Positions 15,291-62,097 of a DNA stretch of 64,000 bases are shown here, piece by piece; position 1 is the first letter of the stretch; the number at the start of each line of letters is the position of its first letter. The position numbers were made by a program, and so were the translations under genes. Origin of the DNA: Promethearchaeota archaeon Loki_b32 (lineage in GTDB: Archaea; Asgardarchaeota; Lokiarchaeia; Sigyniarchaeales; SOKP01); the NCBI GenBank assembly GCA_005223125.1, contig NJBH01000003.1, positions 1 to 64,000 of the forward strand, written 5' to 3'. The notes beneath the pieces are model-generated. The model searched no databases, was not told where the DNA came from, and saw nothing but the letters and a program-made list of their open reading frames with translations.

Positions 15291-16976
15291 TTAGTTAATA
15301 AATGAAACAGATTTCTTAATGTACTCCATATATGACTCAATTTCTTGATTTTTCTTATTTTCATCCCAAGAGTATTCTTTTGCCATAATTTCAGCAACTC
15401 TTTTAGCGGCTATATCCGCAATTTTATGGTCAATCCAAAGTGACATTTCTGTTCGTCTACAAAATAGATCAATTAGATGAGGAGTCGGTTCATATCTTAA
15501 ACAATAAAGAATTTCTGATAGAATAAAATCATTTTCTTCAATTATTTTTTCTTTTAATGATTCATCTTCTTTAATCATTTCAAGAATCTTTATAGCTCCC
15601 TTACCATATTGCTGATATAGGCGATCTTTAATATCGGTCTCCAACTCAATCTTTGATATTTTAACTTCAGCTTCCCATTCTTCTTTTTCTATGCTTATAA
15701 CGAACTTTTGTTTTGAGAAGTTTTCTTTTCTTCCAATATTGGGAAAAATTTCTTTTTCTTCAATTTTTTTGAGTAAATCCTCAGCCATACTCCTCCAAGT
15801 TGTTAGTTTCCCACCTGTAATCGTTAATAATCCATCATTTGAGAAAAATATTATATGTTTCCGAGAAATTTCACTTTCAGATTTACCTTTTTGCATAACT
15901 AAAGGTCTTATTCCCGCATATGTAGAAAGAATGTTATTATAATCTAATTCTGCTTTGGGAAAATAGTGTTTGACGGATTCAATTAAATAATCAGCATCCT
16001 GTCTATTACAAAATGGATTAGCTAAATCCTCCTTATAATCTGTATCTGTTGTACCAATAATCGTAAAATGGTTATTACGAGGTAAAACAAAGAAAGCACG
16101 ACCATCTGTTATTGATCGAATAATAGTGGCCATTTTATTTTTTACATGTTTGCGCTTAAATTGTAAATGGACTCCTTTTGTTGGCCTAATAAGAGGTTCT
16201 GGGATCTCATCAGGATAGTTCTCTAATAATTCATCAGTCCAGATACCAGTTGCATTTATAATTAATTTACCCTTTATCTCTAAGATTTTATCTTTTTCTA
16301 AATCCTTACATTCTACACCCATGATTTTTCCATTCTCTTTAATGTATCCAGTAACTTTACAATAATTAACAATATCTGCACCCCTAATTATTGCTTCTTT
16401 AAGAACCTCAATTGTTAATCTAGTATCATCTACATTATTATCATAATATACTGCTCCACCAATATTTCCTTCTTTAATGAACTCAGGCTCCATCTTAAAA
16501 ATTTCCTCTGGAGGGTACCATTTATACTTTTTATAATTCTTAAATTCTGATTTGTTATCACTTAGAAAATCATATAATTTACATGCTCCTACAATATCTC
16601 GTTTTTTATATTTACCACCTTCTAATGCAACAAAAAGAAAAGGGATTGGTCTTACCAAATGGGGTATATGCGCTCGCATCCAGTTTCTTTCTGTAGTAGA
16701 TTCTTTTACTAAATCCATATCACCGTGAGCTAAATATCTTATGCCTCCATGAGCTAATTTCGAACTCCTTGATGATGTCCCTGCTGCAAAATCTTGCATA
16801 TCAATACAAGCGACCTTTAGCTCTCTCATTGCTGCTTCTCTTGCAACCCCTGCCCCTGTAATCCCCGCTCCAATAATTATTACATCATATTCGGTTTCTT
16901 GCAAGTTATTAATAATTTTGTCCCTATTTTTATAATTCCATGACTTATCAAACAATTTCTTTTCTAAATCTTTCAT
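15291..16976 (-). CDS. glpD: FAD-dependent glycerol-3-phosphate dehydrogenase/oxidase (GlpD/GlpA family)
   Basis: IIGAGITGAG, DFAAGTSSRSSKLAHGGIRYL, IGTTDT, GIRPL, GGKLTT. Confidence 0.9.
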   Translation of the reverse strand: MKDLEKKLFDKSWNYKNRDKIINNLQETEYDVIIIGAGITGAGVAREAAMRELKVACIDMQDFAAGTSSRSSKLAHGGIRYLAHGDMDLVKESTTERNWMRAHIPHLVRPIPFLFVALEGGKYKKRDIVGACKLYDFLSDNKSEFKNYKKYKWYPPEEIFKMEPEFIKEGNIGGAVYYDNNVDDTRLTIEVLKEAIIRGADIVNYCKVTGYIKENGKIMGVECKDLEKDKILEIKGKLIINATGIWTDELLENYPDEIPEPLIRPTKGVHLQFKRKHVKNKMATIIRSITDGRAFFVLPRNNHFTIIGTTDTDYKEDLANPFCNRQDADYLIESVKHYFPKAELDYNNILSTYAGIRPLVMQKGKSESEISRKHIIFFSNDGLLTITGGKLTTWRSMAEDLLKKIEEKEIFPNIGRKENFSKQKFVISIEKEEWEAEVKISKIELETDIKDRLYQQYGKGAIKILEMIKEDESLKEKIIEENDFILSEILYCLRYEPTPHLIDLFCRRTEMSLWIDHKIADIAAKRVAEIMAKEYSWDENKKNQEIESYMEYIKKSVSFIN

Positions 16977-17182
16977 ATATATCAGTCAGCAGAATTTTTA
17001 GATCTAAATTAATCTTACTTGATAATACTATAATACGTAAATTAATATTTCAACTTTTTTTTTGAATTAATAATTATTCGTGTGGACAATACATATTTTT
17101 GCGAAATGTAAAAATTTAAAATAAAATTATTTTATGATCAATGAGTACAGCTAATTTTTGATTCAAAAAAGGATATAAGAAT

Positions 17183-17563
17183 ATGCCAAAATCAGGAAAA
17201 AAAAAAATTTTGATTGTAGACGATGCTCAATTTGTAAGAAATAAGATTAGAAAAGTAGTTGAAAAAATGGATTTTGTCGAAGTTGCAGGTGAAGCTTCAA
17301 ATGGAGATGATGCAATATCTTTATACAAAGAGTTAAAACCTGATTTAGTTACAATGGATCTAGTAATGCCAAATACAGATGGAATTAAAGCTATTGAAGA
17401 AATTATGAAAATTGATAAAAATGCTAAGATCGTTGTAGTAAGCGCGATGGGACAGGAGTTAAGTATTCTTGATGCAACCGAGAAAGGAGCTAAGGATTAC
17501 ATAAAAAAACCTTTTAAAGAAGAAGATATTTACAGAACAATTGAAAAATTTTTAAAAGCCTAA
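17183..17563 (+). CDS. cheY: Stand-alone CheY-like response regulator
   Basis: ILIVDD, TMDLVMP (phospho-Asp), VSAMGQ, KPF. Confidence 0.85.
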   Translation: MPKSGKKKILIVDDAQFVRNKIRKVVEKMDFVEVAGEASNGDDAISLYKELKPDLVTMDLVMPNTDGIKAIEEIMKIDKNAKIVVVSAMGQELSILDATEKGAKDYIKKPFKEEDIYRTIEKFLKA

Positions 17564-17589
17564 TTTTTATAACCATTCAAGACTTATTT

Positions 17590-18721: not shown

Positions 18722-18747
18722 GTTTAGCAATTTTAATTGATATCTGT

Positions 18748-20037
18748 TTATGTAGTTTTAAATAATCTTCTAGACTCAGCATCTCCTAGCACATAATGAC
18801 TTCCACCACCATGAATCATACAAAAGGCATCAAGAAGTGCTATCTGATTACTATATTGCTCTGTGAATGCACGCCCCCCCATAGTTCTAAATAAATCAGT
18901 AGAACTTTGTAAAGCTAATTCAGAAGTTTGGATTTTTAAACCCATCCCGTGAGAAGCCATTATTTTAGAACTAGCTGATTGAGGATGACTATCAATCTCT
19001 CGAGTATAGTTTATCAAAGCGGAAAGAAATAAATTGATTTGGCGTATGTTTTGAGCAATTGGAAATCTTATAATCTGATACTGATGTAATTTGTGTTTAA
19101 ATTGTTCACGTTGAAGGGCAAAACTATGAGAAAAAAACATTTTTTTAATAGAGTCACCTATAGCTTCAGCACTGATGACTAATCTCTCTTCAGTGAGTTG
19201 ATGAAACATAATATCTAAACCATCTCCTTCGAGAAGATTCTCTTTAGGGATTTCTACATTATTAAAAACCAAACGACTGACAAATGCATCATTCATTCCA
19301 TAAGTTCTTACTCTGGAAGATTCATAGTTCTTCAATTGTTGATGTTCAGTATCTACTATTATACCTCCTAATCTTCCACTATTTAACCTACCATAAAGAA
19401 TAATATAGTTTGCCAATACTCCATTAGTGATGAAAAGTTTTTTTCCATTCGCAATTACTGTATCATTTTTATCATCAAGTTCCAACTCAATTCTAACAAT
19501 ATCACTACCCGATTTAAATTCAGTCATAGCCGAAGCAGCCATTAAACCATTTTTTACCACAGGAATAAGAAATTTCTTTCTTTGAAATTCATTAGCTTTA
19601 TAGTTTACAGGATTACAATAAAGTGTTCCTCCTGCTAATCTCCCCATTTCAATACTCCAGTTTCCATTTATATATCTTCCACTATTTTTAGACCAAAAAC
19701 CTCCACATAATGCTAAAGCAATAAGTGCATTTCTAGTAACATTTCCAACTTCATATTCTTCAAAATCTATTACTGTACTATAATATCCCTTTTCCGCTAA
19801 TTTCTTCATAAAATTAGCCACGATTTCTTTCTTCCTTTCTTGAATAGGTTCCTCTGCCAGATAATTTAATTCTTCTAAGGCTTTCAAATCTTTTTCGAGG
19901 ATTTCTTCCATATATTCATAAAACTCAGTTAAAAATTCCTTTTCTTTCGTAGTAAATATTGGGTTATTTAGTAAATCTAATTCGGGGATATAACCACTAA
20001 TTTCTAGTCTTGGAAATTCTGGGAGTCTTGTATCCAT
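18748..20037 (-). CDS. Acyl-CoA dehydrogenase (divergent; helix-G Glu type)
   Basis: AMTEFKSGSD, NGKKLFITNG, LTEERL, REQFKH..YQ; C-terminal IHGGG instead of IYEGT. Confidence 0.88.
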   Translation of the reverse strand: MDTRLPEFPRLEISGYIPELDLLNNPIFTTKEKEFLTEFYEYMEEILEKDLKALEELNYLAEEPIQERKKEIVANFMKKLAEKGYYSTVIDFEEYEVGNVTRNALIALALCGGFWSKNSGRYINGNWSIEMGRLAGGTLYCNPVNYKANEFQRKKFLIPVVKNGLMAASAMTEFKSGSDIVRIELELDDKNDTVIANGKKLFITNGVLANYIILYGRLNSGRLGGIIVDTEHQQLKNYESSRVRTYGMNDAFVSRLVFNNVEIPKENLLEGDGLDIMFHQLTEERLVISAEAIGDSIKKMFFSHSFALQREQFKHKLHQYQIIRFPIAQNIRQINLFLSALINYTREIDSHPQSASSKIMASHGMGLKIQTSELALQSSTDLFRTMGGRAFTEQYSNQIALLDAFCMIHGGGSHYVLGDAESRRLFKTT

Positions 20038-20227: not shown

Positions 20228-21649
20228 ATGATAAAATTTAGTGATAAACAATTAAAAATTCCTAAATTAATGCGCCCAGTCTATTTAGCTACAGTAGGAA
20301 TGTCAAAATTTGATCGGGCATTTCCAGAAACGCGGATTGAAGAATTATGTATAGATGCATTAACAGCAGCAGCAGATTTTGTAAATATGACTCCTAGTGA
20401 ACTAAAAAAGTATATTCACACATGTTATTATGGTCATTTTGCTGATCATTTTGGGGATCAATTACTTGGAGAGGCTGTAATTCATGATAGACTTGGATTA
20501 GATCCATTAGGGAATATTGGAGTAAAAACTGGTGGTGCTACAGGAGGTTCTGCCATGTGGGAGGCTGTAAAAGCTGTTGCTTCTGGATATAGTGATTGTG
20601 CTCTCGCATTAGGTTGGGAGAGAATGGATGAAGTACCAACAGATGAGGGTAATCACCTTATTTCTTGCGCTGCAGATAAAGATTGGGAAACTCCACTTGG
20701 ACATATATATACAGGTTATTATGCTGTTATGGCTCAAAGATATTGGAAAATATTTGGTAAGGAAGAAGACTCATTTCGAAATACTATGGCAGAAGTAGCT
20801 GTAAAGAATCGAGGGTACGCTAGAATGAATCCTCATGCTCAAGGACCGATGAAGATAACTGTTGAGGACGTGATTAACTCTCCTATAGTTGCTTATCCTC
20901 TCCGTGTTTTAGATTGTTGCTTAATGAGTGTCGGATCTGCGTGTGGTATAGTATGTGATGAAAAAACAGCTTATGAAATCACAGACAAACCACTTAGGAT
21001 TTATATTGCAGCCGGGAGCCATACATTAAGGGTAGCTGATCGAAGAGATATGAAAATACCTCTCTTACCAAATGAGAAACCAAATCAATATGATGATTTA
21101 GGGAAAAGATTTCCAGGAGGAAATCGTTATCCAGGATTCACAGGCTTTTTAGCAGCAAGGATGTCCGCTTATTATGCATATAACATGTCTGGTGTTGTTG
21201 ATCCAACTGAAGATCTTGATTTAGTTGAACTTCATGATGCATTTACAATCAGTGATATTCAAACTTACGAAGATATTGGAATTAGGCCTTACGGAGAAGG
21301 AAGAGATTATATTGAGAGTGGAGATGCATATGTTATTAACCCACATACTAAAAAACCAGGAAAGCTACCTAGTAACCCATGTGGTGGGTTAATAGGGTGT
21401 ATGCATGCTGTAGGGGCGACAGGTCTAATGCAAATTGCTGAGATTGGATATCATATTTGGAACCGATGGGATGAAATCCATGAGCCTGAGGAGAAGTGGA
21501 AAGCGTTCGGAAGGGAAAAACCAAAAGATTGGACAAATCTACAAGTTAAGGGAGCAAAAAGAGGTTTGGCAATTTCTCACGCGGGAGTAGGTTCCCATGT
21601 AACATGTACAATTTTAATGGATCCAAATAATTTAATAAAGGAGGATTAG
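20228..21649 (+). CDS. SCPx-type thiolase-fold protein lacking the nucleophilic Cys
   Basis: KTGGATGG in place of ACASG; AVKNR, ELHDAF, HAVGATG retained; two insertions. Confidence 0.9.
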   Translation: MIKFSDKQLKIPKLMRPVYLATVGMSKFDRAFPETRIEELCIDALTAAADFVNMTPSELKKYIHTCYYGHFADHFGDQLLGEAVIHDRLGLDPLGNIGVKTGGATGGSAMWEAVKAVASGYSDCALALGWERMDEVPTDEGNHLISCAADKDWETPLGHIYTGYYAVMAQRYWKIFGKEEDSFRNTMAEVAVKNRGYARMNPHAQGPMKITVEDVINSPIVAYPLRVLDCCLMSVGSACGIVCDEKTAYEITDKPLRIYIAAGSHTLRVADRRDMKIPLLPNEKPNQYDDLGKRFPGGNRYPGFTGFLAARMSAYYAYNMSGVVDPTEDLDLVELHDAFTISDIQTYEDIGIRPYGEGRDYIESGDAYVINPHTKKPGKLPSNPCGGLIGCMHAVGATGLMQIAEIGYHIWNRWDEIHEPEEKWKAFGREKPKDWTNLQVKGAKRGLAISHAGVGSHVTCTILMDPNNLIKED

Positions 21650-21653: not shown

Positions 21654-22256
21654 ATGCCAAAAACAGAAGAGGAAAAAGGTTTTGTAGATATTGTTGATAG
21701 TAGATATAAACCTAAAGGAGTTTTTCATATAATTGAAGCAAATCAACCCATTTATAATAAAGATACGGGAAAATTAGCAGGTGTTACAAACCCAAGAGAT
21801 ATGACATATATACATACATATGGAGGAGAAGCTATATTTTTTGAATCTCTTGGTAAAGGAAGACTTATGGCTTCAAGATGCGATAACGAAAAATGTGAAA
21901 CAAAAGGTTCTGTTTATGAACCGTTTAGAATCTTTTGTCCAGACTGCTTAAGAAAAAACACCGTTGTAGATATAACAGAGAAAGCCCAGAAGACTGCAAA
22001 AATCCACTCATTTATTATTACACATCGTTCTGGAGCTTTCAATACATTGCCTAAACCCATAAAATTCATAAATGTAGAATTTGATGAAGAAGTGGTAACG
22101 ATTCTTATGAGTGTGTTAGTTGTCGGAGAACCTGAAATGGGAAAAATAGTTGTGCCAATTTTTCGAACTAAAAGTCCAACCTATACAATTATGGATTTAA
22201 TGTTTGTTGTTGAAGGTACAACCGAGTCAGAGTTACCTGAAGGCTTTACATTTTAA
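21654..22256 (+). CDS. DUF35 Zn-ribbon/OB-fold partner protein
   Basis: FFESLGKGRLMASRC..C..P.RIFCPDC followed by OB fold; GGAGG upstream. Confidence 0.88.
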   Translation: MPKTEEEKGFVDIVDSRYKPKGVFHIIEANQPIYNKDTGKLAGVTNPRDMTYIHTYGGEAIFFESLGKGRLMASRCDNEKCETKGSVYEPFRIFCPDCLRKNTVVDITEKAQKTAKIHSFIITHRSGAFNTLPKPIKFINVEFDEEVVTILMSVLVVGEPEMGKIVVPIFRTKSPTYTIMDLMFVVEGTTESELPEGFTF

Positions 22257-22491: not shown

Positions 22492-23391
22492 TTATAATAT
22501 CACATGTTCTTGCTTTAGATGAAATATTTTTCTTGCCTCTTCACCTTGAGCAATTTCTCGTCCTGAAATCTCAGCAACCTTTTTGGCCCATGCTACTTGT
22601 TCATAACTGCCTTTAGCTAATTCTCCTGTAATATTACGTGTATTATCTTCGAGACCAACTCGAATATGCCCTCCCAAAGCTGCAGCGCATAATCCACCTT
22701 GAAATTGTTGCTTAGAAACACCACATACACTCCAAGTAGCATCTGGAGGTATCAGATCTAGCAGTAGAGCGAGATTTTTTGGATTGAATGGAATTCCTCC
22801 GAGTACGCCCCATACAAATTGGAAATGTAATGGTTGTGTGAATGTACCTTCTTGTTTATTTAGGAAAAGCATATTATACAAGCCTCCTAAGTCGTAAATT
22901 TCCATTTCTGGTTTAGTTCCAGCTTTCTTCATCTCCTTCGCAAATTTCGAAATAGTTCTAAATGTATTTGCAAAAATATTAGTTGCACCCATACCAACTT
23001 TTCCTGTTCTGTAATCACCAACAGCAAAATTCATGGAGGCTGTATTTAAAGATGCTAGGGGGGGTTTATAGGTTTGAACTGGCGCTATTCTTTGTTTATC
23101 AGTTGCAACTGAACTAATAGCCGTACTCAAATTTATTATTACATCTGGTGCTTTTGATTTAATATTTTCTAGCACAGCCTTTATTAACTCTAACTCATGT
23201 GTTGGATTGCCTTTTTCTGGATCTCGAGCATGAATGTGAACAATCGCAGCACCTGCATCATAACATTTTTTTGCTTCATCTCCAAATTCTTCTGCTGTAT
23301 AAGGAACACCTGGATTATTAACCTTAGTCGTAATTGCACCAGCTAATGCTGCTGAAATAACTAACTTATTTTCTGGGTTTGATTCTGACAT
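22492..23391 (-). CDS. Beta-keto acid cleavage enzyme (BKACE/Kce, DUF849)
   Basis: AGAAIVHIHARD, SLNTASMN, KPEMEIYD, GGHIRVGLEDN. Confidence 0.93.
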   Translation of the reverse strand: MSESNPENKLVISAALAGAITTKVNNPGVPYTAEEFGDEAKKCYDAGAAIVHIHARDPEKGNPTHELELIKAVLENIKSKAPDVIINLSTAISSVATDKQRIAPVQTYKPPLASLNTASMNFAVGDYRTGKVGMGATNIFANTFRTISKFAKEMKKAGTKPEMEIYDLGGLYNMLFLNKQEGTFTQPLHFQFVWGVLGGIPFNPKNLALLLDLIPPDATWSVCGVSKQQFQGGLCAAALGGHIRVGLEDNTRNITGELAKGSYEQVAWAKKVAEISGREIAQGEEARKIFHLKQEHVIL

Positions 23392-23668: not shown

Positions 23669-24814
23669 ATGGATAAAGAAGTTGCTATTGTTGGATGTAC
23701 TCAAACTAAATATGAAGCAGATAAAATAGATTTAACAATTTCAGAACTTGTATTTGAAGTTGTCAAGAAGCTTCATAATGATTTAGGAATCACAAATGAT
23801 GATGTTGGGTGTGTAATATCTGGTTCTAATGATTTCAATGATGGGCGAACAATTGCTAATATGGCAATTCAAGATGCCGTAGGATCTGTTAGAAAATCAG
23901 AATCTCGAGTTTCTGGAGATGGTGCTTTTGCTTATGTGTATGGTGCTATGAGGATTCTTTCTGGTGAATATGATACAGTCTTGGTTGTTTCCCATTCTAA
24001 ATGTTCAGAAGGGGATCAATTTCTTATAAATAATTCAATATTTGATCCCTATTATCAACGACACTTAGGATTAGATCAAATTTCTTCTGCTGGTTTAATG
24101 GCAAATATGTATATGAGTAAATATGGAGTTAGTGAAGAACAAGCTGCTAAAGTGGTTGTAAAAAATCGGAAAAATGCTATAAATAACCCACATGCACATC
24201 TACAAAAAGAGGTATCTATGGATGAGGTTTTAAGCTCACCAATGTTAGCATATCCACTGAAAGAATTGGATTTTCCACCATATAGTGACGGTGCAGTAGC
24301 AATGCTTCTCACTAACAAAGAAAAGGCTAAAAGGTTTACAAATACACCAGTTTGGTTAAAGGGATATGCAAGTTGTACTGATGCTTATTATCTTGGACAT
24401 CGAACCATGACCGATCTAATTGGATTAGAATTTGCTGCAAAAGAAGCCTATAAGATGGCAAAAATCAAGGATCCGGTTAGGGATTTGGATGTTGCTGAAG
24501 TTTTTGAAGCCTTTTCTACACATGAACTGATGATTTATGAAGCATTAGATTTTTGTGATAAAGGAGAGGGAGGAAAATTTATAGATAGTGGAGAAACAAA
24601 TATAAATGGTACAATTCCAGTTAATCCTTCGGGTGGTGTTTTATCTAGCAACGTAGCAATGGCTAATGGATTAATTCGTGTAGCAGAAATTACTTCACAA
24701 CTAATGGGTGCAGCAGAGGATCACCAAATACCTAACGCAAAAACGGGACTAGCATATGGGATGAATGGTATCTGTTCGCAAGGAAATTGTGTATTAATAT
24801 TTGGAGGTGAATAA
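23669..24814 (+). CDS. Ltp4-like thiolase-fold protein (no catalytic Cys/His)
   Basis: SGSNDFNDGR, ESRVSGDGAFA, EVFEAF, NPSGG.LSSN. Confidence 0.85.
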   Translation: MDKEVAIVGCTQTKYEADKIDLTISELVFEVVKKLHNDLGITNDDVGCVISGSNDFNDGRTIANMAIQDAVGSVRKSESRVSGDGAFAYVYGAMRILSGEYDTVLVVSHSKCSEGDQFLINNSIFDPYYQRHLGLDQISSAGLMANMYMSKYGVSEEQAAKVVVKNRKNAINNPHAHLQKEVSMDEVLSSPMLAYPLKELDFPPYSDGAVAMLLTNKEKAKRFTNTPVWLKGYASCTDAYYLGHRTMTDLIGLEFAAKEAYKMAKIKDPVRDLDVAEVFEAFSTHELMIYEALDFCDKGEGGKFIDSGETNINGTIPVNPSGGVLSSNVAMANGLIRVAEITSQLMGAAEDHQIPNAKTGLAYGMNGICSQGNCVLIFGGE

Positions 24815-24817: not shown

Positions 24818-25990
24818 ATGCCAAAACATAATGTAGCGGTAGTAGGGATTGGTCAAACTAAGTTCAGGAGTAAAAGAAGAGATGTGAATATACCTGAAAT
24901 GATCTATGAAGCAGTTAAGATGGCCCTTGATGATGCTCAAATGGAACCGAAAGATGTTGATGCCATTCTTATCGGCAATATGGATCATTTTGAAGGGATT
25001 AATTTCTCTGAGATGTGGTGTGGAATTGATGCTGCACCAGGATATCTAAAACCAGTTGTTAAAATTGCAACTGGAGGGACAACAGGGTCATCTTTAGGGA
25101 TATGTGGATATTATAATGTCGCTTCTGGGATATACAAAAACATTTTAGTTGTGGGATGGGAGAAATTAAATGAAGGAGGAGCCACAACAGGAATAATCAC
25201 AGCATTTGATCCTGTATGGGAACGCCCCTCATTGGCAGGAGCTCTAGGACCACTCGCTCTAATGGCAAATATTTATGCTGCTCGATATGGAATAACCTCT
25301 GAACAAGCAGCAAAAGTAACTGTTAAAAATAGAAGCAATGCTGCCAATAATCCATTTGCCCATATACAAATGCCTGATATTACTTTAGAAGATGTAATGA
25401 ATTCTCAAATGATATCTTATCCCTTAAGATTACATGATTGTTGTCCACAGAGCGAAGGAGCTTGTGCCGTTATCTATGCTAATGAGGAAGAAACAAAGAA
25501 AATAACAGATAATCCTGCATGGTTTAAAGGTGTGTCAACAGCTCATTACTACACATTTGGTTGTGACGATTTAATGTTTGATTTGCCCACTGCCGCCATT
25601 GCGTCCAAGAAAATATATAAGAAACTAGGTATAAAAGACCCTGTAAAGGATCTTGATGTTGCGGAGATATATGAACCTACATCATGGTCAGAACTTAGTT
25701 GGACTGAAAGCTTAGGTTTTTGCGGTAAAGGAGAAGGAGGTAAGTTATTGGATGAAGGTATAACTCAAATGACGGGAGAGTTACCCGTTAATCCCTCTGG
25801 TGGAGTATTAAGCACTAATCCTATTGGAGCAACAGCATTAGTGCGATTCGCTGAAGCTGCTATCCAGGTTATGGGTAGAGGAGGAAAACGACAAATTCCT
25901 GATGTCGAAACAGCAATGGGAATGGGATTTGGTGGATCTCTTTGGACTGAATTAGCAATATTAGGTAAAGATCCAAAACCGTTGAGGTGA
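24818..25990 (+). CDS. Ltp3-like thiolase-fold aldolase
   Basis: ATGGTTGSS (no Cys), AEIYEP.SW.E, NPSGGVLSTNPIGAT..RFAEAAIQV. Confidence 0.85.
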   Translation: MPKHNVAVVGIGQTKFRSKRRDVNIPEMIYEAVKMALDDAQMEPKDVDAILIGNMDHFEGINFSEMWCGIDAAPGYLKPVVKIATGGTTGSSLGICGYYNVASGIYKNILVVGWEKLNEGGATTGIITAFDPVWERPSLAGALGPLALMANIYAARYGITSEQAAKVTVKNRSNAANNPFAHIQMPDITLEDVMNSQMISYPLRLHDCCPQSEGACAVIYANEEETKKITDNPAWFKGVSTAHYYTFGCDDLMFDLPTAAIASKKIYKKLGIKDPVKDLDVAEIYEPTSWSELSWTESLGFCGKGEGGKLLDEGITQMTGELPVNPSGGVLSTNPIGATALVRFAEAAIQVMGRGGKRQIPDVETAMGMGFGGSLWTELAILGKDPKPLR

Positions 25991-25995
25991 TAAAA

Positions 25996-26475
25996 ATGGG
26001 AAAAAAAGAAAAGGAATTTCAGATTAAATGGAAAACAGACTTACCTTATAGGTATTCTATAGGAAAATTGGCAGTAAAATATTTTGAAGAACTTAAAAAT
26101 AAGAAGATTATGGGTTCAAAATGCCCTAAATGTGATAAAAGATATATGCCTCCGAGAGCCGTATGTGCGAATTGTTTTATTGAAATGACTGTGGAAGATA
26201 TGATAGAATTTTCTCCTAAAGGTACTTTAGTAGGATTTACAGTTGTTAATTATCCCTTTATTGATCCAAATACAGGAGGTATGCGTCCATTCCCTTATGG
26301 TTATGGAATATTCAAATTAGATGGAGCAGACACGTATATGATGCACTTTGTTGATGAAACTGATCATACTAAATTTAAAATCGGACAAAGAGTTGAAGCA
26401 GTGTTCAAAGAAAAAACTGAAGGTGATATTTATGATATTCCATACTTCAGGCTTATTAAGGAGGAGGAAGAATAA
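25996..26475 (+). CDS. DUF35 Zn-ribbon/OB-fold protein
   Basis: GSKCPKC..PPRAVCANC; I.LDGAD; GQRVEAVF; ATG 25996 follows GAGGTGA. Confidence 0.92.
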   Translation: MGKKEKEFQIKWKTDLPYRYSIGKLAVKYFEELKNKKIMGSKCPKCDKRYMPPRAVCANCFIEMTVEDMIEFSPKGTLVGFTVVNYPFIDPNTGGMRPFPYGYGIFKLDGADTYMMHFVDETDHTKFKIGQRVEAVFKEKTEGDIYDIPYFRLIKEEEE

Positions 26476-40865: not shown

Positions 40866-41046
40866 TTAACTCAACTCTAAAAATTTAAATTAATTTTTTT
40901 AGTAGTAATATTGCCCATATCTCTTAAAATTATTTAAAATGTCTGTAAAAATTAAAGAAAGGGAATCAGAGGTTTTTAAAATTATAAATACTACTAATCA
41001 CAATATTAATCATTATAAAAATTACAATCAAAAAAAATTTAAAATA

Positions 41047-47320: not shown

Positions 47321-47322
47321 AA

Positions 47323-49030: not shown

Positions 49031-49288
49031 TTTATTGTTTTACTATTTGGAATTAATTTAAAAGAGTATTAAATCTATTTTAAATCTTCTTTGATCTATT
49101 ATTTTTCTTAATCAATTGTACAATTATTCTATTTGATAAATCGAAGTATGTCTCTAGGTTACCTTAAATCAAAATTTCAATTAAGAATTTCAATATTATT
49201 CTAATATATCTATATATAGATTTTCGATCAATTCTTTAAAATCTTGAATTTAATGTTTAACAGAAGTTTTGTTTCCATCAGAAAAATA

Positions 49289-51075: not shown

Positions 51076-51108
51076 AATTTTTTTGAATAATAGGGAAAAT
51101 ATCTGTTT

Positions 51109-52078
51109 TCATTCACTTAGAAACTTGTTTAATACATTACTAATTTTTTCAATAGAATATTGTATATCATCTTTATTTATTCCGTAATGAGTTACAAATC
51201 TGATTTTTTCTTTACTGATATTGAAAGCTAAAATCCCCTCTTTTCCAAGGGTATTTACTATTTTAAATATGCGTGTCTTTTTCTTAAGTTCAACAATTAC
51301 AATATTAGTTTCTGGTTTATGTACATTTATAGGTAAATCACTAGTTTCAATTCCTTCAGCAAGTAGCTTTACATTTTCATGATCTTCCTCAAGTCTGTTA
51401 ATCCATTTTTGTTCAAGTGCAATTAAACCAAAAGAAGCAATTATTCCAGCTTGACGCATACCTCCACCAAGCATTTTTCGATATCTCCTAGCATTCGTGA
51501 TAAATTCCTTGGATCCCGCAACAATTGAACCCACTGGACAAGAAAGTCCTTTAGATAGACAAAACATTACGCTATCAACATATTTAGTGAACTCTGTAAC
51601 AGGGATTTTTAGGCTTACTGCTGCATTAAATATCCTCGCTCCATCTAAATGTAATTTTAAATCATTCTTTTCTGAAAATCCCTTCATCTCCTTAATTATT
51701 TCTGGTTGGATAATCACTCCTCCATGATAATTATGAGTGTTTTCTACAGAAAAGAGAGTAGTTGGTGGCTCATGTATATCTTCTTTATCACAAATTAATT
51801 TTTGAAGTTGATCAAATGAAGGAACACCTTTATTCGAGGGATAAGTTCTAATCATTAATCCGCCAATACGTGCAGCACTACCTACCTCATTTTTGTAAAT
51901 ATGACTTAATTCTTCTAAGAGAATCTGCTTTTTCTTCTAACTCATTAACAGTAGGATCTTCTCCTTCAACATCATCTCCAATTTTTGAGTCATCCAAAGA
52001 CCTTAGCATTTCCCACATTTCAGGAGATGGTTTGGTTACGGTATCAGAACGAAATTCAACTACTCTCGAATTAATCAA
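51109..52078 (-). pseudogene. ltaE: Threonine aldolase copy B, inactivated by a ~95-bp frameshifting deletion
   Basis: Colinear with 44519-45583 but lacks the segment equal to 45337-45431 (includes SGTQGN); junction near 51925 with CT microhomology. Confidence 0.9.
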
Positions 52079-53072: not shown

Positions 53073-54847
53073 TTAATGTCAAACAACACTCACCCGACAA
53101 AAATAAATAGGCTCCTTGAGCTTAATAGAAAGGTTTATCTTCGTTAAATCCTTATTTTATTTAATGCCAACAAAACCTTCTGAAATTAAAAAAGCTACAA
53201 TCCATACTTATTGGAAATCTAAAGAAGGATTGATTTGCCCCTTATGTTCTTCTCAATTACAACATGAATTTAATAATGGAGGCAGGAAGATTATTACTTT
53301 AAAGGGACCTGTATGGGTAATGACTAATTATTATAGCTGCATTAATCCTAAGTGTGAAATGCACGAGGCATTTCCAGTAGCATATCATTCTGCCATGCAA
53401 CGGAAGCGATTTTCCTTGGAAGTATGGGAAAAAGTGATACAACATCATTTCAAGCATCATCTTAATTATTCCACTATCGTTGAACTCATGTGGGACGATT
53501 GGGACGTGTCAATTTCGAGGAACACGGTGAGAAACATCTGCGAATTTTTTGAAATGGCAGGAAAGCAATACACGGACAAAAAAGTCCTAAAAGAGGTAGA
53601 ATCAAGCGGGAAAATTGTTTTATCGCTTGATGGTGCCCAACCAGTTAAGAGCGAGCCTTCTCTTTGGGTCTTTTCTGATCGCCTCACGGGAAACGTGCTC
53701 CTTGCAAGGAACTTAGAATCTGCTCCCGCATTCGCGTTATGTGCTATATTTCGAGAAATTGAAATGCTCTATGGCGTTCCCATCGTAGCCATCATTTCCG
53801 ACAAGCAAAAAAACATTGTGAATAGTGTCAAGCAATTCAAACCAGATATCCCACAGGTGTATTGCCAGTACCACTTCCTTAACCACGTTGCCGAGCCCAT
53901 TGCTTCGAAAGATTCGCATCTCAAGAAAATTCTTCGGAAATCTGTAAAACAACTCTCAATTGTCTATAATAGTAAATATACCGATTCAAACAAGTTATAC
54001 AAGTTGTTTCATCCCATTAGCGAGGAGCTGAAATGTGCCATCTCCACGCGTGGTGTTCGATTTGACGTGTTTCCGGGAATCGAAGCATATGCGAATTTAG
54101 AGTATGTTGTATCACGATTGGAACAATTCGGGGAAATAGAGTTCGCTCCGAAAGTTTTTCGCACACTGAACGCTCTTCTTGCAGCATTAAAGAATTTACT
54201 TAGAGAGAATCGTCATTTACGAGAGGAGATAACCTCCTTGATACCTGATTTTCAGCAGATTCGTAAGATTTTGGCCAAAAGGGAGAAAAAATCTTCTCAA
54301 ATCGAGAAAGAAGTGAAAAAATGGATGTACAAACTCCAGAGCCGCTTGAAAAGGAGAAAATTGGAGTCTAATCCTCAGAACATCAAGTGGCAACAACCTT
54401 CTTTCAAGTTAAGTTGCGAGGAAATATGGCAACAATGGATTAGGTTAGTAAATTCTTATAGTGAAGGATTATACAAGGCTTATGATGTCGAGGAATTAGA
54501 GTTTACCAATAACGCCAAAGAACAGCTGTTTCACCGCAGTAAGCACCATTTTAAAGCCCTATTGGGCCGTGAAAACGTTGCAAGAGCGTTTCTGAACCAC
54601 GGAGGACTGCATGTCCAGTTATTAGATATCGATTTTACGAAAAAAAAAGTTACAAGCGTGCTGTTAGCGTGCGAAACCCCACTTATTGAAGCCCACAGGA
54701 AAGAATTTAACGCACAATACGCAACAATAAGAAGAACGTGGAGAATTAGAGAAAAAGACACAGGAAACTTTACCCAATTCAAAATTAATTTGACTCAACT
54801 AGAGATGTCCTAATCTATTTTGTCGAGTGAGTGGGGTTTGAAATTAA
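53073..54847 (+). mobile_element. IS element (Mutator/IS256/ISL3-superfamily-like) with terminal inverted repeats and flanking TTAA
   Basis: Left TTAATGTCAAACAACACTCACCCGACAAAA vs reverse-complemented right TTAATTTCAAACCCCACTCACTCGACAAAA (4 mismatches). Confidence 0.88.
53164..54813 (+). CDS. Transposase (Zn finger, HTH, DDE with CxxH)
   Basis: CPLC..C..C, LSLDGA, IISDKQ, YCQYHF, NNAKEQLF. Confidence 0.88.
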   Translation: MPTKPSEIKKATIHTYWKSKEGLICPLCSSQLQHEFNNGGRKIITLKGPVWVMTNYYSCINPKCEMHEAFPVAYHSAMQRKRFSLEVWEKVIQHHFKHHLNYSTIVELMWDDWDVSISRNTVRNICEFFEMAGKQYTDKKVLKEVESSGKIVLSLDGAQPVKSEPSLWVFSDRLTGNVLLARNLESAPAFALCAIFREIEMLYGVPIVAIISDKQKNIVNSVKQFKPDIPQVYCQYHFLNHVAEPIASKDSHLKKILRKSVKQLSIVYNSKYTDSNKLYKLFHPISEELKCAISTRGVRFDVFPGIEAYANLEYVVSRLEQFGEIEFAPKVFRTLNALLAALKNLLRENRHLREEITSLIPDFQQIRKILAKREKKSSQIEKEVKKWMYKLQSRLKRRKLESNPQNIKWQQPSFKLSCEEIWQQWIRLVNSYSEGLYKAYDVEELEFTNNAKEQLFHRSKHHFKALLGRENVARAFLNHGGLHVQLLDIDFTKKKVTSVLLACETPLIEAHRKEFNAQYATIRRTWRIREKDTGNFTQFKINLTQLEMS

Positions 54848-54892: not shown

Positions 54893-55642
54893 TTACAAAC
54901 CCGGAATTGCTGTTCGTTTATGGATGACATCTAGTACTTTGGAAACAGTTGAGATCAAGACTAGAAAGATGATAGCGATAATAATGAATGTAGCCTCCGG
55001 GATAAACTCCTTAAAAACGAGATAGTGAGCCTTGCCAAAAAGTTCTGGTACTCCAATATACCAGACAACTATAGTATATTTCGGAAGATAAGCGGCTTCG
55101 TTGGACCATGCAGGAATAACACGGCGTAAAGCCTGTGGCAACACGATATGGACTATACCCACCCGACGAGACATACCCAGCGATTGGGCAGCTACTAGTT
55201 GCTCAGTACCAACAGATGTAATAGCACCACGGAGGTATTCAGCTTGATAAGCCGCACTATTAAGACCTAAAGCGAGGATACCTACTAAAATTTCTGGATT
55301 TAATAAGATGAAAGTCATCTCCCTATCACTGATTCTAAAGTTAGTGTAGAAGGCCCACCTTTCAATGGGGATATTCAAGCTATAAGGGAGAAAGTATAGG
55401 AGTAATATCTGTGCTAGTAAAGGTGTACCCCGCACAATTTCGATGTACCCAGTAGCAATCCGTGAAATAATTGCCCCCCCATATTGGCGAAGAATGGCGA
55501 GGAAAAGGCCAAGAAAAAAGCCTATCATTAGTGCCCATACATATAACCAAATCATCATTATAAAACCTTCTAGGATTTCATCCCAGTATTCTAGTACGGC
55601 AAGTAAGTCCTGAATTTCCTGAGGGAGAGCTTGGAACATCAT
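54893..55642 (-). CDS. Polar amino-acid ABC permease (copy B, intact)
   Basis: [30 protein letters not shown]. Confidence 0.93.
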
Positions 55643-56430
55643 TTGTCTTCTTCCTCTTTTGACAACTTCAGAAGTCCTTTATGGCTTCCGTATAAAATAT
55701 CAAGTTGTTTAAGAAAAGTCTTCACACGATCAGATTTTGGTGAGGCGAAGAAGTGTTGTGGAGTTCCACGTTCTATTATGACGCCATTACCGAGGAAGAG
55801 CATTTCTGATGCAACAGCTCCAGCGAATCCCATCTCGTGAGTTACTACTATCATTGTAGTACCAGTTTTAGCAAGCTCTAACATTACTTGAAGTACTTCT
55901 CCGATCAGTTCAGGATCCAAGGCAGAGGTAGGTTCGTCAAACAAGATAACATCAGGCTCCATTACCAATGCACGTGCAATACCTATACGCTGTTGTTGAC
56001 CACCGGATAGTTGTGCAGGATAATGATCAGCCCATTCCGCCATCTTTACTTGATTTAAAGCCTTTAATGCCTTCGAACGAGCTTCTTCCTTTGATACACC
56101 TTTTACTCGGCGAAGACCGATACTAACGTTATTTATTGCTCTGAGATGCGCAAAAAGATTAAAATGTTGGAATACCATACCGATATTTGCTCGCATTATG
56201 TTAAGATTGATTCCAGGCTCCATTAGATTCTGTTCCGAGAGATAGACCTCACCTTGGTCTGGTGGGTCCAGCATATTGATGCAACGAAGCAATGTGCTCT
56301 TACCAGAGCCACTTGGTCCGAAAATAACCTTCACCTCTTGTTCCATTAACTCAAATGAGACCCCCTTAAGAACCTCCAATTCTCCATACGATTTCCACAC
56401 ATCAACTATGCGTAGCACGGGTTTACCCAT
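55639..56430 (-). CDS. Polar amino-acid ABC ATP-binding protein (GlnQ-like)
   Basis: [35 protein letters not shown]. Confidence 0.95.
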
Positions 56431-59975: not shown

Positions 59976-60347
59976 TTATTTAGTTTTTAATACGATTGTA
60001 ATTGCTCTCGTTAGGCGGATAACATCCATAACTTTACCTTTTTCCACAGTTATCTGCTCTCGCGAAATCACATGGGTAAAATCTCCTTTTCCATCACATA
60101 CTTTAACGAGTGCATCAGAATCCCCAGACATTACGATGAATGCATCAGATTTAGTACCTTCAGATAAGAGAGCTTTACGATTCTTGATTTCTAAGAAGAA
60201 GGGGTCATCTTTATCTAGATTAAACTGAAAGGACATCTCCCAATCAACATCTTTTCCTGCAATATTCGTAACAAATACCGCTTGAGCTTTTGGAATTGTG
60301 TTTAATTTCTCCACGATTTTACTTAAATTTTCTTTTGCTTGTCCCAT
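59976..60347 (-). CDS. SCP2-like lipid-binding domain protein
   Basis: FQFNL..PFFLEI..ALL.EG..D..M.GD pattern; coupled to the DUF35 gene. Confidence 0.75.
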   Translation of the reverse strand: MGQAKENLSKIVEKLNTIPKAQAVFVTNIAGKDVDWEMSFQFNLDKDDPFFLEIKNRKALLSEGTKSDAFIVMSGDSDALVKVCDGKGDFTHVISREQITVEKGKVMDVIRLTRAITIVLKTK

Positions 60348-60844
60348 TATGATTCTCCTCCTTCATATTCTGACTTTGATATCCAATTTTCATACTCATC
60401 TTCGGGAACAAAGAAAAAATCAGTCATTTTACCCACCCTATCCTTGTTAAAGACCGCCCTAACTTTTTTTCCCTTTTTTATTTTTGAAGGTACTAAATTC
60501 TCAGAAAAAATCCCTTGAAGTAATGCGGTTTCAGCACCATCAAGTTTTATAAACCCTATTCCATAAGGTATCGCTTTGATAAAGGCTGAAGTGGTATACC
60601 ACACTATTGTGCTAACCTCTATTGTTCCAGTTTGTTTGAGTTCCACCCAATTTGCTGGTGTATAGCAATCAGAGCAGTTAATTCTAGGAGGCATCCATAT
60701 CTTTCCACATTTAGTACATTTCGTACCTAATAACTTCTTGTTATTCATTAACTCTATAAAAAACTTTGATTGACCTCCCATTGTGTATTTATACGAAATA
60801 GCAATTTTATCTCGTATTTCATGAGATAGAAATTCTTCACTCAT
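60347..60844 (-). CDS. DUF35 Zn-ribbon/OB-fold protein
   Basis: GTKCTKCG..PPRINCSDC; IKLDGAE; GKKVRAVF. Confidence 0.92.
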   Translation of the reverse strand: MSEEFLSHEIRDKIAISYKYTMGGQSKFFIELMNNKKLLGTKCTKCGKIWMPPRINCSDCYTPANWVELKQTGTIEVSTIVWYTTSAFIKAIPYGIGFIKLDGAETALLQGIFSENLVPSKIKKGKKVRAVFNKDRVGKMTDFFFVPEDEYENWISKSEYEGGES

Positions 60845-62097
60845 GTTTGTTTCAACCCCTCCTCATTTGCCATTACAATAACTGCGGCATATGCTGCTCC
60901 CGGTCCTCCTATAGAATGCGAAATAGCTCGCCCCTTTTCAATTGTTACTTGATGTTTTCCTGCTTCTCCTCTTAATTGAAGAGCAGCCTCTCCCGTACTC
61001 ATTATCCCAGTTGCACCAACAGCATGTCCACAACCTATTAACCCCCCAGAAGGACAGCAGGGTAATTCCCCTTCAATCCAGGGTCCCTCTCCTGATTTTT
61101 CAAAAGTTTTTTCAATCCAAGAACCACCCTCTCCAAAAGGAACAAACCCAAGCTCCTCATAGGAAATAACTTCCTGTCCTGAGAATGCATCGTGTAATTC
61201 TGCTAAATCTATTAGGCTTTTTATTCTATTATAATCTAGTCCTGCCATTTTATAGGCAGCTTTTGCTGCATATATATTTGAATAAAGTCTTCCCATATCT
61301 TCTCTGTTTCCTATAAAACAATCAGTATTTGCTGCTGCTACCCCAGTAATCCAAACTGGCTTTTCAATCTTTAATTCTCTTACTTTTTCTTCACTTGCTA
61401 GAATCAACGCCGCAGACGCTTCTGAATATAAACAACAATCCAACATTTTGAATGGATAGCAGATTATTCTTGAATTCATGACATCCTCAACGGTTATTTT
61501 CATTGGAGATTGTGCTTTTGGATTATTCATAGCATTTCCATGATTTTTAACACTAACGTAAGCCATTTGTTCCTCCGTTGGATTTCCAAATTCTTCATAA
61601 TGCGCATTTACCATCGACACATAAGAACTCGCTGCCATCATGCCCATAGGGTATTCATATGTCATATCCGCGGAATATGCTATTGCATTTAAAACTTCAG
61701 GTGTAGTAACTCCAGTTTGTTCATCGTAACAGTCATTACATTTTTCAAGACCTATGCATAAACATAAATCTGACAATCCTGAAGCAACTTCTGCATATGC
61801 CATCCTTACTGTGTATCCTCCTGTAGCACCCCCTGTTGCAATACGCGTTCCAGGTTTGTTATTCATCCCAAGATAACTATTTGTAAAAATATCTGGCATA
61901 AATTGCCGTTCAAACAATTCGTTATAGATTCCATAAACGGTTGATTGAATGTTTTTATGAGATATATCAGCTCCATTTTTATTAGCATCTTCTAAGGCAA
62001 GTTTAGTTGCATCATAAGCAAGCTCAAAATAAGTTTTATCTAAATACCTTGCCTTAAAAGGAGTAATTCCAATTCCTATTATTGCTACTTTTTGCAT
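60841..62097 (-). CDS. SCPx-type thiolase-fold protein lacking the nucleophilic Cys
   Basis: ATGGATGG; SVKNH; ELHDAF; GHAVGATG. Confidence 0.9.
   Translation of the reverse strand: MQKVAIIGIGITPFKARYLDKTYFELAYDATKLALEDANKNGADISHKNIQSTVYGIYNELFERQFMPDIFTNSYLGMNNKPGTRIATGGATGGYTVRMAYAEVASGLSDLCLCIGLEKCNDCYDEQTGVTTPEVLNAIAYSADMTYEYPMGMMAASSYVSMVNAHYEEFGNPTEEQMAYVSVKNHGNAMNNPKAQSPMKITVEDVMNSRIICYPFKMLDCCLYSEASAALILASEEKVRELKIEKPVWITGVAAANTDCFIGNREDMGRLYSNIYAAKAAYKMAGLDYNRIKSLIDLAELHDAFSGQEVISYEELGFVPFGEGGSWIEKTFEKSGEGPWIEGELPCCPSGGLIGCGHAVGATGIMSTGEAALQLRGEAGKHQVTIEKGRAISHSIGGPGAAYAAVIVMANEEGLKQT

Follow-up and report, generated by a model that had tools for sequence, protein, structure and literature searches.

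The first 64 kb of the 228-kb contig NJBH01000003.1 from the Promethearchaeota archaeon Loki_b32, a whole stretch that is called the window here, carry six genes for thiolase-fold proteins, all of which lack the nucleophilic cysteine of thiolases. By sequence comparison, four of these proteins form, together with their DUF35 pairs, two true homologues of the actinobacterial Ltp4/Ltp3/double-DUF35 module, and the system probably cuts carbon chains by an aldol-type split. The region is a conserved neighborhood of several operons in a Loki-type Asgard genome (4.13 Mb, 95.5% complete, about 30% G+C). Its genes could encode a beta-oxidation-like route for organic acids activated with CoA, in which Cys-less thiolase-fold lyases, with DUF35 proteins, perform the C-C cleavage, a proposal to which we give even chances.

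All open reading frames (ORFs) of the window were scanned with Pfam at a family cut-off of E 0.001, and the six thiolase-fold genes listed in a preliminary description of this DNA were all found in their places. T1 (20228-21649, + strand) is a Cys-less SCPx-type protein of the HDAF/G-C-x-H type with two insertions, and T6 (60841-62097, − strand) belongs to the same type. T2 (23669-24814, +) is an Ltp4-type subunit whose nucleophile loop carries a 3-residue deletion and whose HDCF motif reads FEAF, while T3 (24818-25990, +) is an Ltp3-type subunit with the motifs TGGTTG, E-I-Y-E-P, and S-T-N-P-I-G; a second module is formed by T4 (41524-42666, +), of the Ltp4 type, and T5 (42668-43915, +), of the Ltp3 type. 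Residues were aligned among these six proteins, the other SCPx-type proteins of the genome, and the solved thiolases 6esq, 7yvy, and 6hsj. When aligned to 6esq and 7yvy, the nucleophilic Cys is replaced by Gly in T1, T3, T5, and T6 and falls inside the 3-residue deletion in T2 and T4, which bears out the earlier claim that none of the six possesses it. The Cys of HDCF is also missing from all six. At the position of the HDCF His, only T3 and T5 have Tyr, with Phe in T2 and T4 and His in T1 and T6; the His of the GHP motif is retained in the T1/T6 type and is Asn in the other four. Compared to true SCP2-type and archaeal thiolases, both cysteines are thus gone in six of six proteins, and the two histidines persist only in T1 and T6. 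Judged from these residues, the six proteins cannot be ordinary thiolases. Their clustering is far beyond chance, as six of the nine SCPx-type genes of the genome are packed into 42 kb of 4.13 Mb (chance of about 1e-8).

In the rest of the genome, two canonical SCPx-type thiolases with Cys and HDCF and one type-II-like thiolase are encoded on other contigs. One of the canonical enzymes has its own DUF35 and the other adjoins a probable HMG-CoA-synthase-DUF35 fusion; located on contigs C36 and C58, they are the genome's true counterparts of the archaeal thiolase complexes. On C36 (37768-40395, locus L003), the canonical Cys-thiolase lies beside a 478-amino-acid (aa) ORF that matches the DUF35 profile and is probably the HMG-CoA synthase-DUF35 fusion of the mevalonate pathway. 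Five genes with a 3HCDH_N domain are likewise present on other contigs; the absence of a 3-hydroxyacyl-CoA dehydrogenase and of a Cys-containing thiolase, as previously noted, therefore holds for the window and fails for the genome. A seventh Cys-less SCPx-type protein, encoded on contig C37 (31985-33208, locus L001), has Pro in place of the Cys, keeps HDAF and GHP, and gives the top Thiolase_C_1 score in the genome. It clusters with the Cys-thiolases in a maximum-likelihood (ML) tree, and a profile search detected no neighboring DUF35 gene.

T2 and T3 are separated by 4 bases and T4 and T5 by 2 bases, and all four match Pfam Thiolase_N and Thiolase_C_1. Among NCBIfam profiles, T3 and T5 scored highest against PRK08313, which we take to be Ltp3, and T2 and T4 matched PRK07937, which we take to be Ltp4, together with PRK06065 and PRK06066. 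Searching plasmid records with tblastn returned actinobacterial genes of about 40% identity. One of these lies in a Tsukamurella steroid cluster, where the order is a crotonase, an AMP-ligase, a 309-aa double OB-fold protein, 359-aa and 390-aa thiolase-domain genes, a P450, and a "steroid 3-ketoacyl-CoA thiolase" (FadA5); the two thiolase-domain genes were taken as ltp4 and ltp3 solely from this synteny. By reciprocal BLAST, the 390-aa Ltp3-like protein pairs with T3 (42% identity, 269 bits) and the 359-aa Ltp4-like protein with T2 and T4 (28-29% identity, 135 bits), while both OB halves of the 309-aa protein match the DUF35 proteins of the window. The Ltp3-type proteins share the signatures E-x-Y-x-P-x-S-W and N-P-I-G, and those of the Ltp4 type have the 3-residue deletion in common. 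The phylogeny proposed earlier as a check placed T2 to T5 with the actinobacterial proteins: T2, T4, and the Ltp4-like protein form one clade (support 100/99) and T3, T5, and the Ltp3-like protein another (92/96), the two being sisters at 82/81 in an ML tree of limited sampling that leaves out Ltp2, Sal, BbsB, and PhlC. T1 and T6 group together (96/93), apart from the Ltp3/Ltp4 clades.

The preliminary description had paired the thiolase-fold genes with six DUF35 genes; five of these are clear by Pfam, and the sixth is divergent. The clear ones are D3a (25987-26475, +) and D3b (26475-26939, +), which overlap their upstream genes by 4 bases and 1 base, respectively, D4 (40939-41508, +), D5 (43933-44463, +), and D6 (60347-60844, −). 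The partner of T1, D1 (21654-22256, +), is a zinc-ribbon/OB protein that falls below Pfam at 0.001; nevertheless, it has sub-threshold zf-ChsH2 and OB_ChsH2_C matches in the correct order, four aligned cysteines, and an hhalign E of 2.4e-4 versus the other five DUF35 proteins, and it stays beside T1 in relatives. On these sequence features, we read it as a divergent DUF35. T6, D6, and a putative SCP2 gene (SCP2b) are translationally coupled. Throughout the loci examined, the Ltp3-type and Ltp4-type paralogues always co-occur, and the four genes T2-T3-DUF35-DUF35 are always together. Co-folding predicted a T3:T2 heterodimer with a score of 0.96, the best of three controls reaching 0.00; of 80 solved complexes, 58 reached the mark, as did 2 of 110 mismatched pairs. 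Between runs, at least 97% of the contacts agree, the partner pLDDT is at least 94, and the predicted interface is the usual thiolase dimer interface; since thiolase dimers have already been solved, this pass may reflect mere likeness to solved homodimers and is not proof of a heteromer.

In characterized aldolases of this fold, the base is the Tyr of YDHF (Ltp2) or YDCY (Sal), located at the position of the thiolase HDCF motif (PMC12329534). Tyr285 of T3 falls on the HDCF His in alignments and matches Tyr298 of PhlC, which lines the active site of that enzyme (PMC6392133); the equivalence of Tyr285 to the Ltp2 residue rests on the common HDCF alignment and matched ranges rather than on a residue-by-residue alignment of T3 with 6ok1. 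Tyr285, Asn334, and Cys209 are invariant in 71 of 71 T3-family sequences from archaea, bacteria, and actinobacteria. Cys209 lies within a D-C-C-P-x-S-x-G stretch, where true SCP2-type thiolases have Cys or Ser; homology would place it in the lining of the CoA tunnel, which makes a role as replacement nucleophile unlikely. The Ltp3-type subunit (T3, T5) would most likely bear the active site, with Tyr285 as the base and Asn334 at the thiolase His position, and its partner, bound across an ordinary thiolase dimer interface, would be the Ltp4-type subunit (T2, T4), with each thiolase-fold subunit docking one DUF35. As summarized in the portion of PMC6273163 that cites Wilbrink 2012, Ltp3 and Ltp4 are "aldol-lyases" essential for degradation of C24-branched sterol side chains, a role supported by genetics. 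Altogether, Ltp3/Ltp4 homology and Tyr285 lend reasonable support, at the level of sequence, to the earlier view of Cys-less thiolase/DUF35 complexes as retro-aldolases for four of the six proteins, T2 to T5; it does not extend to T1 and T6, which belong to another clade and have a conserved Cys.

This conserved residue, Cys391 in T1 numbering, lies two residues before the retained His393 in the G-C-x-H motif and is present in 34 of 34 T1/T6-like sequences; HDAF and both histidines are kept in T1, T6, and their orthologues. T1 scored 682 bits against NCBIfam PRK06365, for which the cut-off is 695. Two insertions of about 30 and 25 residues distinguish T1 from T6.

The genes around the six include every enzyme named in the preliminary description, i.e., two acyl-CoA dehydrogenases (ACADs), two crotonases, a CoA ligase, a FadH-type reductase, a BKACE, an Fe-ADH, an AOR, a CrtI-like flavoprotein, and GlpD, all of which were found by Pfam. 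They are laid out in blocks, the first of which (18.7-26.9 kb) comprises ACAD1 (−), T1-D1 (+), BKACE (−), and T2-T3-D3a-D3b (+). ACAD1 (18748-20037) has its catalytic Glu on helix G, as in the IVD/LCAD type, and Gly at the canonical Glu site in the alignment. BKACE (22492-23391), of the beta-keto acid cleavage enzyme family, matches PF05853 with 298.7 bits versus a gathering threshold of 24.8. Its top NCBIfam match is Kce at 260 bits, below the equivalog cut-off of 382; from its sequence, it is a member of the BKACE family but not a Kce equivalog. Two more BKACE genes are present in the genome on contigs C39 (26168-28851) and C42; some 1.3 kb separate the C39 gene from one for a 289-aa 3HCDH-type dehydrogenase, a combination usual for BKACE genes.

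The second block opens with a flavoenzyme (27016-29028, −) that combines OYE/FMN and FAD/NAD(P) (Pyr_redox_2) parts in the architecture of 2,4-dienoyl-CoA reductase (FadH), with all NCBIfam matches under their cut-offs, and with the crotonase ECH1 (29262-30086, +), whose top NCBIfam match is EchA19 (163 bits versus a cut-off of 400). There follows, at 30.1-40.9 kb, a row on the − strand that reads ACAD2-LIG-ECH2-CrtI-like-FNR/2Fe-2S-SCP2a-FeADH-AOR and is divergent from D4-T4-T5-D5 (+; 40.9-44.5 kb). Its members are ACAD2 (39585-40865), with an IVD-type base; an AMP-dependent acyl-CoA ligase (LIG, 37639-39348) nearest to long-chain fatty-acid ligases; the crotonase ECH2 (36705-37520); a CrtI/CRTISO-family flavoprotein (35006-36559), a full-length relative of phytoene desaturase (4dgk, E 1.6e-20); an FNR-like reductase (33803-35002) with FAD_binding_6, NAD_binding_1, and C-terminal 2Fe-2S domains, 4 bases from the CrtI-like gene; SCP2a (33303-33713); Fe-ADH (31988-33187); and AOR (30105-31952). 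Among the best 120 relatives of the CrtI-like protein, no Ctm-like names were present, all being Asgard homologues annotated as phytoene desaturase family or prolycopene isomerase. The two SCP2 proteins noted earlier differ in strength: SCP2a is a clear Pfam match to a lipid-carrier-like protein, whereas SCP2b (59976-60347, −) has no pairwise similarity to SCP2a and is SCP2-like only by a borderline Pfam match (20.9 bits versus a cut-off of 21.3) and by Atlas clusters that are 51-55% SCP2.

Treatment of 15291-62097 as a single pathway unit does not survive this layout, since the 46.8-kb span consists of several operons and its part from 44.5 to 59.6 kb carries other genes, namely a pyridoxal phosphate (PLP) aldolase, aminotransferases, a polar amino-acid ABC transporter, an ISL3 transposase, and truncated paralogue copies; T6-D6-SCP2b (−) close the region at 60.0-62.1 kb. 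The aldolase (44519-45583, −), a neighbor of D5, is threonine-aldolase-like and of the GntG family (382 bits versus a cut-off of 230). The stretch 45846-51855 is rearranged and looks like a partial duplication with an insertion sequence: a truncated copy of the aldolase (51109-51855) matches the last 247 residues of 44519-45583 at 90% identity, an ABC ATPase fragment (46592-47227) is 81% identical to 55639-56430, a permease fragment (45846-46172) is 65% identical, and the ISL3-family transposase is split into two overlapping ORFs (49330-50403 and 50394-50936). In most congeners examined, unlike in this rearranged stretch, the aldolase is directly followed by the transporter. No Pfam family was found at E 0.001 for ORFs 1188-3989 (933 aa), 5839-6696 (285 aa), 6911-8545 (544 aa), and 53116-54813 (565 aa), and two long TPR proteins are encoded at 9282-10736 and 11224-12141. 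GlpD/GlpA-like (15291-16976, −) has an RNase-H-like gene and a response regulator between it and the cluster and occurs in only 7 of 32 Asgard loci; its proposed use of glycerol phosphate, and with it a link to ether-lipid backbones, is unsupported.

We examined conservation of the neighborhood in other genomes. T3 orthologues of 73-96% identity are present in many metagenome-assembled genomes (MAGs) of Promethearchaeota, Jordarchaeia, and Freyarchaeota, and relatives about 50% identical occur in Syntrophaceae and Desulfarculaceae (Thermodesulfobacteriota) and in other bacteria; the module is thus not specifically archaeal, contrary to the earlier suggestion. Neighbors were counted across 32 Asgard loci that are 15 kb or longer. 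BKACE was present in 27, the FNR-like gene in 26, the CrtI-like gene in 25, the ligase, ECH1, and ACAD1 in 22 each, and ECH2 in 20; lower counts were obtained for Fe-ADH (18), T1/D1 (17), SCP2a (14), OYE (10), and AOR (9). Bacterial loci provide independent support for co-conservation. In a Syntrophaceae MAG (L090), much of the neighborhood forms a single operon, in which the order on one strand is D-T2-T3-D-ACAD (IVD type)-ligase-crotonase-ACAD-CrtI-like-FNR-like; the FNR-like gene adjoins the CrtI-like gene both there and in locus L103, and BKACE and ACADs lie beside the module in loci L100, L105, L108, and L109. Among 12 congeneric loci, the ACAD2-LIG-ECH2-CrtI-FNR block is beside D4-T4-T5-D5 in 7 and partly in 2 more, the PLP aldolase (ThrAld) is beside D5 in all 12 species, and the SCP2b-D6-T6 trio is on the same stretch in 7 of the 12, giving the composite order [FNR-CrtI-ECH2-LIG-ACAD2][D4-T4-T5-D5][PLP aldolase][amino-acid ABC][SCP2b-D6-T6]. 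The expected synteny across Asgard genomes is therefore seen in many Promethearchaeota and partly in bacteria. At phylum scale, the T3 type proper is patchy: of 151 genomes sampled, 19, belonging to two families, carry it, and it was not found at E<=1e-120 in 23 other sampled Asgard families. This distribution suggests gene transfer with bacteria. In one other Asgard family (f20; genomes G067, G085, G099, G105, and G115), each genome has three T3-type copies, of which one shares about 73-76% identity with T3 and the other two share about 52-53%. Other inserts that vary among the islands are a luciferase-like oxidoreductase, a class-III aminotransferase, an MFS transporter, and a nitronate-monooxygenase-like protein; the last of these families is also represented in bacterial locus L100 and among the genes of the Tsukamurella steroid cluster.

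From this gene content, the following order of steps may be proposed. The AMP-ligase would activate an acid, the IVD-type ACAD would dehydrogenate the acyl-CoA, and the EchA19-like crotonase would hydrate the enoyl-CoA; the resulting beta-hydroxyacyl-CoA would then be split by retro-aldol cleavage into a carbonyl compound and acetyl- or propionyl-CoA. Such a solution is needed where the beta-carbinol cannot be oxidized, as with branched chains. The acid could be supplied by the ACAD2-LIG-ECH2-CrtI-like-FNR/2Fe-2S-SCP2-FeADH-AOR operon from a hydrophobic unsaturated precursor, through allylic oxidation or double-bond chemistry and then conversion of alcohol to aldehyde to acid, and BKACE would turn a free beta-keto acid into an acyl-CoA without ATP. 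No acyl-CoA carboxyltransferase (Carboxyl_trans domain) was found in the 95.5%-complete genome, so the carboxylation-dependent logic of the sitosterol and Atu/Liu routes, which we considered and set aside, is not simply transferable. We also rejected as a main role a straight-chain loop in which aldolase, AOR, and ligase replace the hydroxyacyl-CoA dehydrogenase and thiolase, because by our reasoning each round would consume two ATP equivalents for no apparent benefit, and AOR is in only 9 of 32 loci.

Several observations weigh against this retro-aldol route. T3 lacks the second catalytic residue of Ltp2 (Tyr344) and Sal (Cys304), Asn334 and Pro287 standing where these would be (residues per PMC12329534), and comparison with Ltp2 and Sal identified no acid catalyst in T3. 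The NCBIfam cut-offs are missed, with 377 (T3) and 347 bits (T5) against 514 for PRK08313 and 201 (T2) and 195 bits (T4) against 419 for PRK07937, and by these sequence scores T2 to T5 are at best distant members of the two families. Among PDB matches of T3, 6ok1 (Ltp2) ranks eighth and 9myr ninth. Our literature search found no biochemical characterization of any Ltp3/Ltp4-clade enzyme, and the label "aldol-lyase" rests on genetics and on analogy with the distant relatives Ltp2 and Sal. An alternative nucleophilic Cys, which the preliminary description had held to count against aldolase chemistry, has a candidate in Cys391 of the T1/T6 clade, although Cys209 of T3 is judged unlikely; from their sequence, T1 and T6 may use Cys391, and Cys-dependent chemistry is possible for them. 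In related Promethearchaeota, a 291-aa short-chain dehydrogenase/reductase (SDR, adh_short) lies between BKACE and the Ltp3/4-type modules (L034, 6171-7046; L121, 12017-12892; also L035, L037, and L115), and L090 has an SDR upstream as well. As the window has no SDR gene of this 291-aa kind, the missing dehydrogenase is a trait of the window and not of the system, and oxidation of the beta-hydroxy group may occur in the SDR-bearing relatives. AOR, Fe-ADH, SCP2, and OYE are variable neighbors; much of the synteny evidence is drawn from close kin, and the counts among the 32 related Asgard loci overstate independence. Finally, the IVD-type base of both ACADs says little, since it is common to most ACAD paralogues of the genome.

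By analogy with known systems, our leading guess for the substrate is a branched, isoprenoid-like chain. The long-chain-type ligase, the EchA19-like ECH1, the CrtI-like flavoprotein, and the SCP2 proteins fit a hydrophobic, unsaturated, branched chain; the specific classes put forward previously (phytol, archaeol, sterol, or hopanoid) are not shown by any result. In its widest form, the guess would have Promethearchaeota and syntrophic or sulfate-reducing Thermodesulfobacteriota degrade isoprenoid chains independently of O2 by way of a CrtI-family enzyme, Fe-ADH/AOR, Ltp3/Ltp4-type retro-aldolases, and BKACE, with no carboxylase, which we regard as doubtful. The chains could be derived from phytol, squalene, carotenoids, or archaeal lipids; the CrtI-family flavoenzyme and its fused ferredoxin-reductase partner would attack the unsaturated chain, Fe-ADH and AOR would lead to the acid, and after CoA activation the heteromeric retro-aldolases and BKACE would remove the methyl-branched units that thiolases cannot handle. 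A literature search yielded nothing relevant on genes for anaerobic use of phytol or trimethylpentadecanone, nor on Asgard SCP2/thiolase pathways. If the substrate is isoprenoid, the module would give the missing genes for anaerobic turnover of isoprenoid lipids in sediments and would hint at what Loki-type archaea eat.

The same enzymes could instead act on short, amino-acid-derived substrates rather than lipids, a possibility that we consider unlikely, although the conserved PLP aldolase, the amino-acid transporter, the aminotransferases, and the Kce-like BKACE speak for it. Leucine or isovalerate, for example, could pass from isovaleryl-CoA through 3-methylcrotonyl-CoA and 3-hydroxyisovaleryl-CoA to acetone and acetyl-CoA with no carboxylase needed, in agreement with both ACADs being of the IVD type and with the lack of a detectable carboxyltransferase, by which the normal leucine route is missing; in a variant, hydroxy- or amino-acids would enter via the PLP aldolase, aminotransferases, and BKACE. 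The GntG-type aldolase and the polar amino-acid ABC transporter are conserved near D5 in the 12 congeners, but they are on other strands or operons and may be mere neighbors. A class-III aminotransferase adjoins the module in some MAGs, and a Liv-type ABC transporter precedes it in bacterial locus L109. The top match of BKACE is the lysine-fermentation enzyme Kce, albeit under the cut-off, whereas the ligase is nearest to long-chain fatty-acid ligases and the SCP2 carriers and CrtI-family flavoprotein point to hydrophobic substrates.

Degradation specifically of sterol or hopanoid side chains, as by actinobacterial Ltp3/Ltp4, has a small chance of being the function. The four-gene module with ECH1 is homologous to the ltp3/ltp4/echA19 neighborhood, the OYE protein is similar to BaiCD, an enzyme of bile-acid metabolism (449 bits, under the cut-off), and in Sterolibacterium a flavoenzyme related to CtmAB works on the side chains of sterols (PMC11061730). 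However, the Pfam scan of the window shows no further steroid-catabolic gene (no KstD/AcmB type, no Mo-dependent C25/C26 hydroxylase, and no MaoC-type ChsH hydratase), the genome yielded no carboxylase for the C28 step, and the module is widespread in anaerobes that are not known as sterol users. Slimmer still is the chance that these are ordinary ketothiolase (KT)/DUF35 pairs for beta-oxidation or acyl carrier protein-independent archaeal fatty-acid synthesis. Archaeal thiolase complexes show the same fold and DUF35 pairing, Asgard genomes average 3.8 KT/DUF35 pairs that have been tied to fatty-acid synthesis (Schmerling et al., bioRxiv 10.1101/2024.07.05.601840), and in T1 and T6, with both His kept, the invariant Cys391 might be a relocated nucleophile; but the acyl-accepting and HDCF cysteines are missing in all six proteins, the GHP His is missing also in T2 to T5, and canonical Cys-thiolases are encoded separately in the genome, one accompanied by DUF35 and another next to HMG-CoA synthase. 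It is least credible that the lyases run synthetically in a thiolase-free elongation loop, joining an aldehyde (made from an acid by AOR) or a ketone with acetyl-CoA to a 3-hydroxyacyl-CoA for dehydration and reduction, since, although AOR, crotonases, ACAD/OYE-type enoyl reductases, and a ligase do occur together with aldolase-type proteins and aldol addition would by general thermodynamic reasoning sidestep the unfavorable Claisen step, AOR and OYE are in only 9 and 10 of 32 loci, the cluster has no thioesterase or ADP-forming synthetase, and the known relatives (Ltp2 and Sal, and Ltp3/4 by genetics) are catabolic.

Returning to the retro-aldol reading, we compared the window to known systems. 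The archaeal acetoacetyl-CoA thiolase/DUF35(/HMG-CoA synthase) complexes (6esq/6et9) and the KT/DUF35 fatty-acid synthase complex of S. acidocaldarius have the same SCPx-type fold with DUF35, and the acetoacetyl-CoA thiolase/DUF35 complexes are the best or near-best sequence matches of T6 and T1; they have the Cys nucleophile, HDCF, and GHP, while the six proteins of the window lack the nucleophile. KT/DUF35 pairs in Asgard genomes have been counted as fatty-acid synthesis potential (Schmerling et al.), which bears on the "lipid divide" and eukaryogenesis; as seven of the nine SCPx-type genes here cannot be thiolases, such counts overstate thiolase capacity. The uncharacterized ST0096 of Sulfolobus tokodaii (4yzo) is the best solved-structure match of T2 (E 2e-46) and T3 (5e-49). 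The aligned loop of ST0096 is likewise devoid of the nucleophilic Cys. Both of its motifs (HDMA and GHP) retain the His, a trait shared with T1, T6, and the C37 protein and absent from T2 to T5.

Anaerobic monoterpene degradation in Castellaniella defragrans employs CtmAB (a COG1233 flavoenzyme), CtmE (a 2Fe-2S ferredoxin), CtmF (a reductase), GeoA, GeoB, a CoA ligase, and Mrc proteins that include a 2,4-dienoyl-CoA reductase (PMC4109377). A CrtI-family flavoprotein, a 2Fe-2S/NAD(P)H reductase, alcohol and aldehyde oxidation, a CoA ligase, hydratases, and a FadH-like reductase are similarly combined in one neighborhood of the window. The window differs in having a single flavoprotein gene instead of the CtmAB alpha/beta pair, a fused ferredoxin and reductase, a tungsten-type AOR for the aldehyde step, and Fe-ADH for the alcohol step. 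The order of CrtI-like/FNR, ADH, AOR, and ligase thus resembles anaerobic terpene activation, a circumstantial functional analogy drawn from descriptions of the parts.

Ltp2-ChsH2(DUF35) (6ok1) and Sal-Shy(DUF35) are likewise thiolase folds that lack the nucleophilic Cys and are docked to DUF35. Their YDHF and YDCY motifs (PMC12329534) share a leading Tyr with Y-E-P-T and Y-S-P-F of T3 and T5, and the amide residue Asn334 of T3 sits at about the place of Sal Gln352. Unlike Ltp2 and Sal, T3 belongs to a separate lineage and is predicted to form a heteromer of paralogues instead of a homodimer, and T1, T2, T4, and T6 have no such Tyr. The closest counterpart is Ltp3-Ltp4 with a double-DUF35 protein, as in M. 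tuberculosis Rv3523/Rv3522/Rv3521 and Rhodococcus rhodochrous ltp3/ltp4, encoded beside fadD19 and echA19. Both systems have two adjacent paralogous Cys-less SCPx-type subunits, two DUF35 domains, and nearby a crotonase closest to EchA19 and an AMP-ligase. In the window, the DUF35 domains are two separate genes rather than a fused pair, there are two paralogous modules in an anaerobic archaeal host, sequence identity is 28-42%, and the neighbors are BKACE, CrtI-like/FNR, AOR, Fe-ADH, and SCP2 instead of steroid genes. The Ltp3/Ltp4 clade, known only by genetics in sterol-degrading actinobacteria, occurs, as shown here, also in archaea and anaerobic bacteria, where it forms a module that is conserved and duplicated; its recurrent partners (IVD-type ACAD, crotonase, ligase, BKACE, and CrtI-like/FNR) define a widespread, uncharacterized C-C cleavage system and provide concrete candidates for biochemistry.

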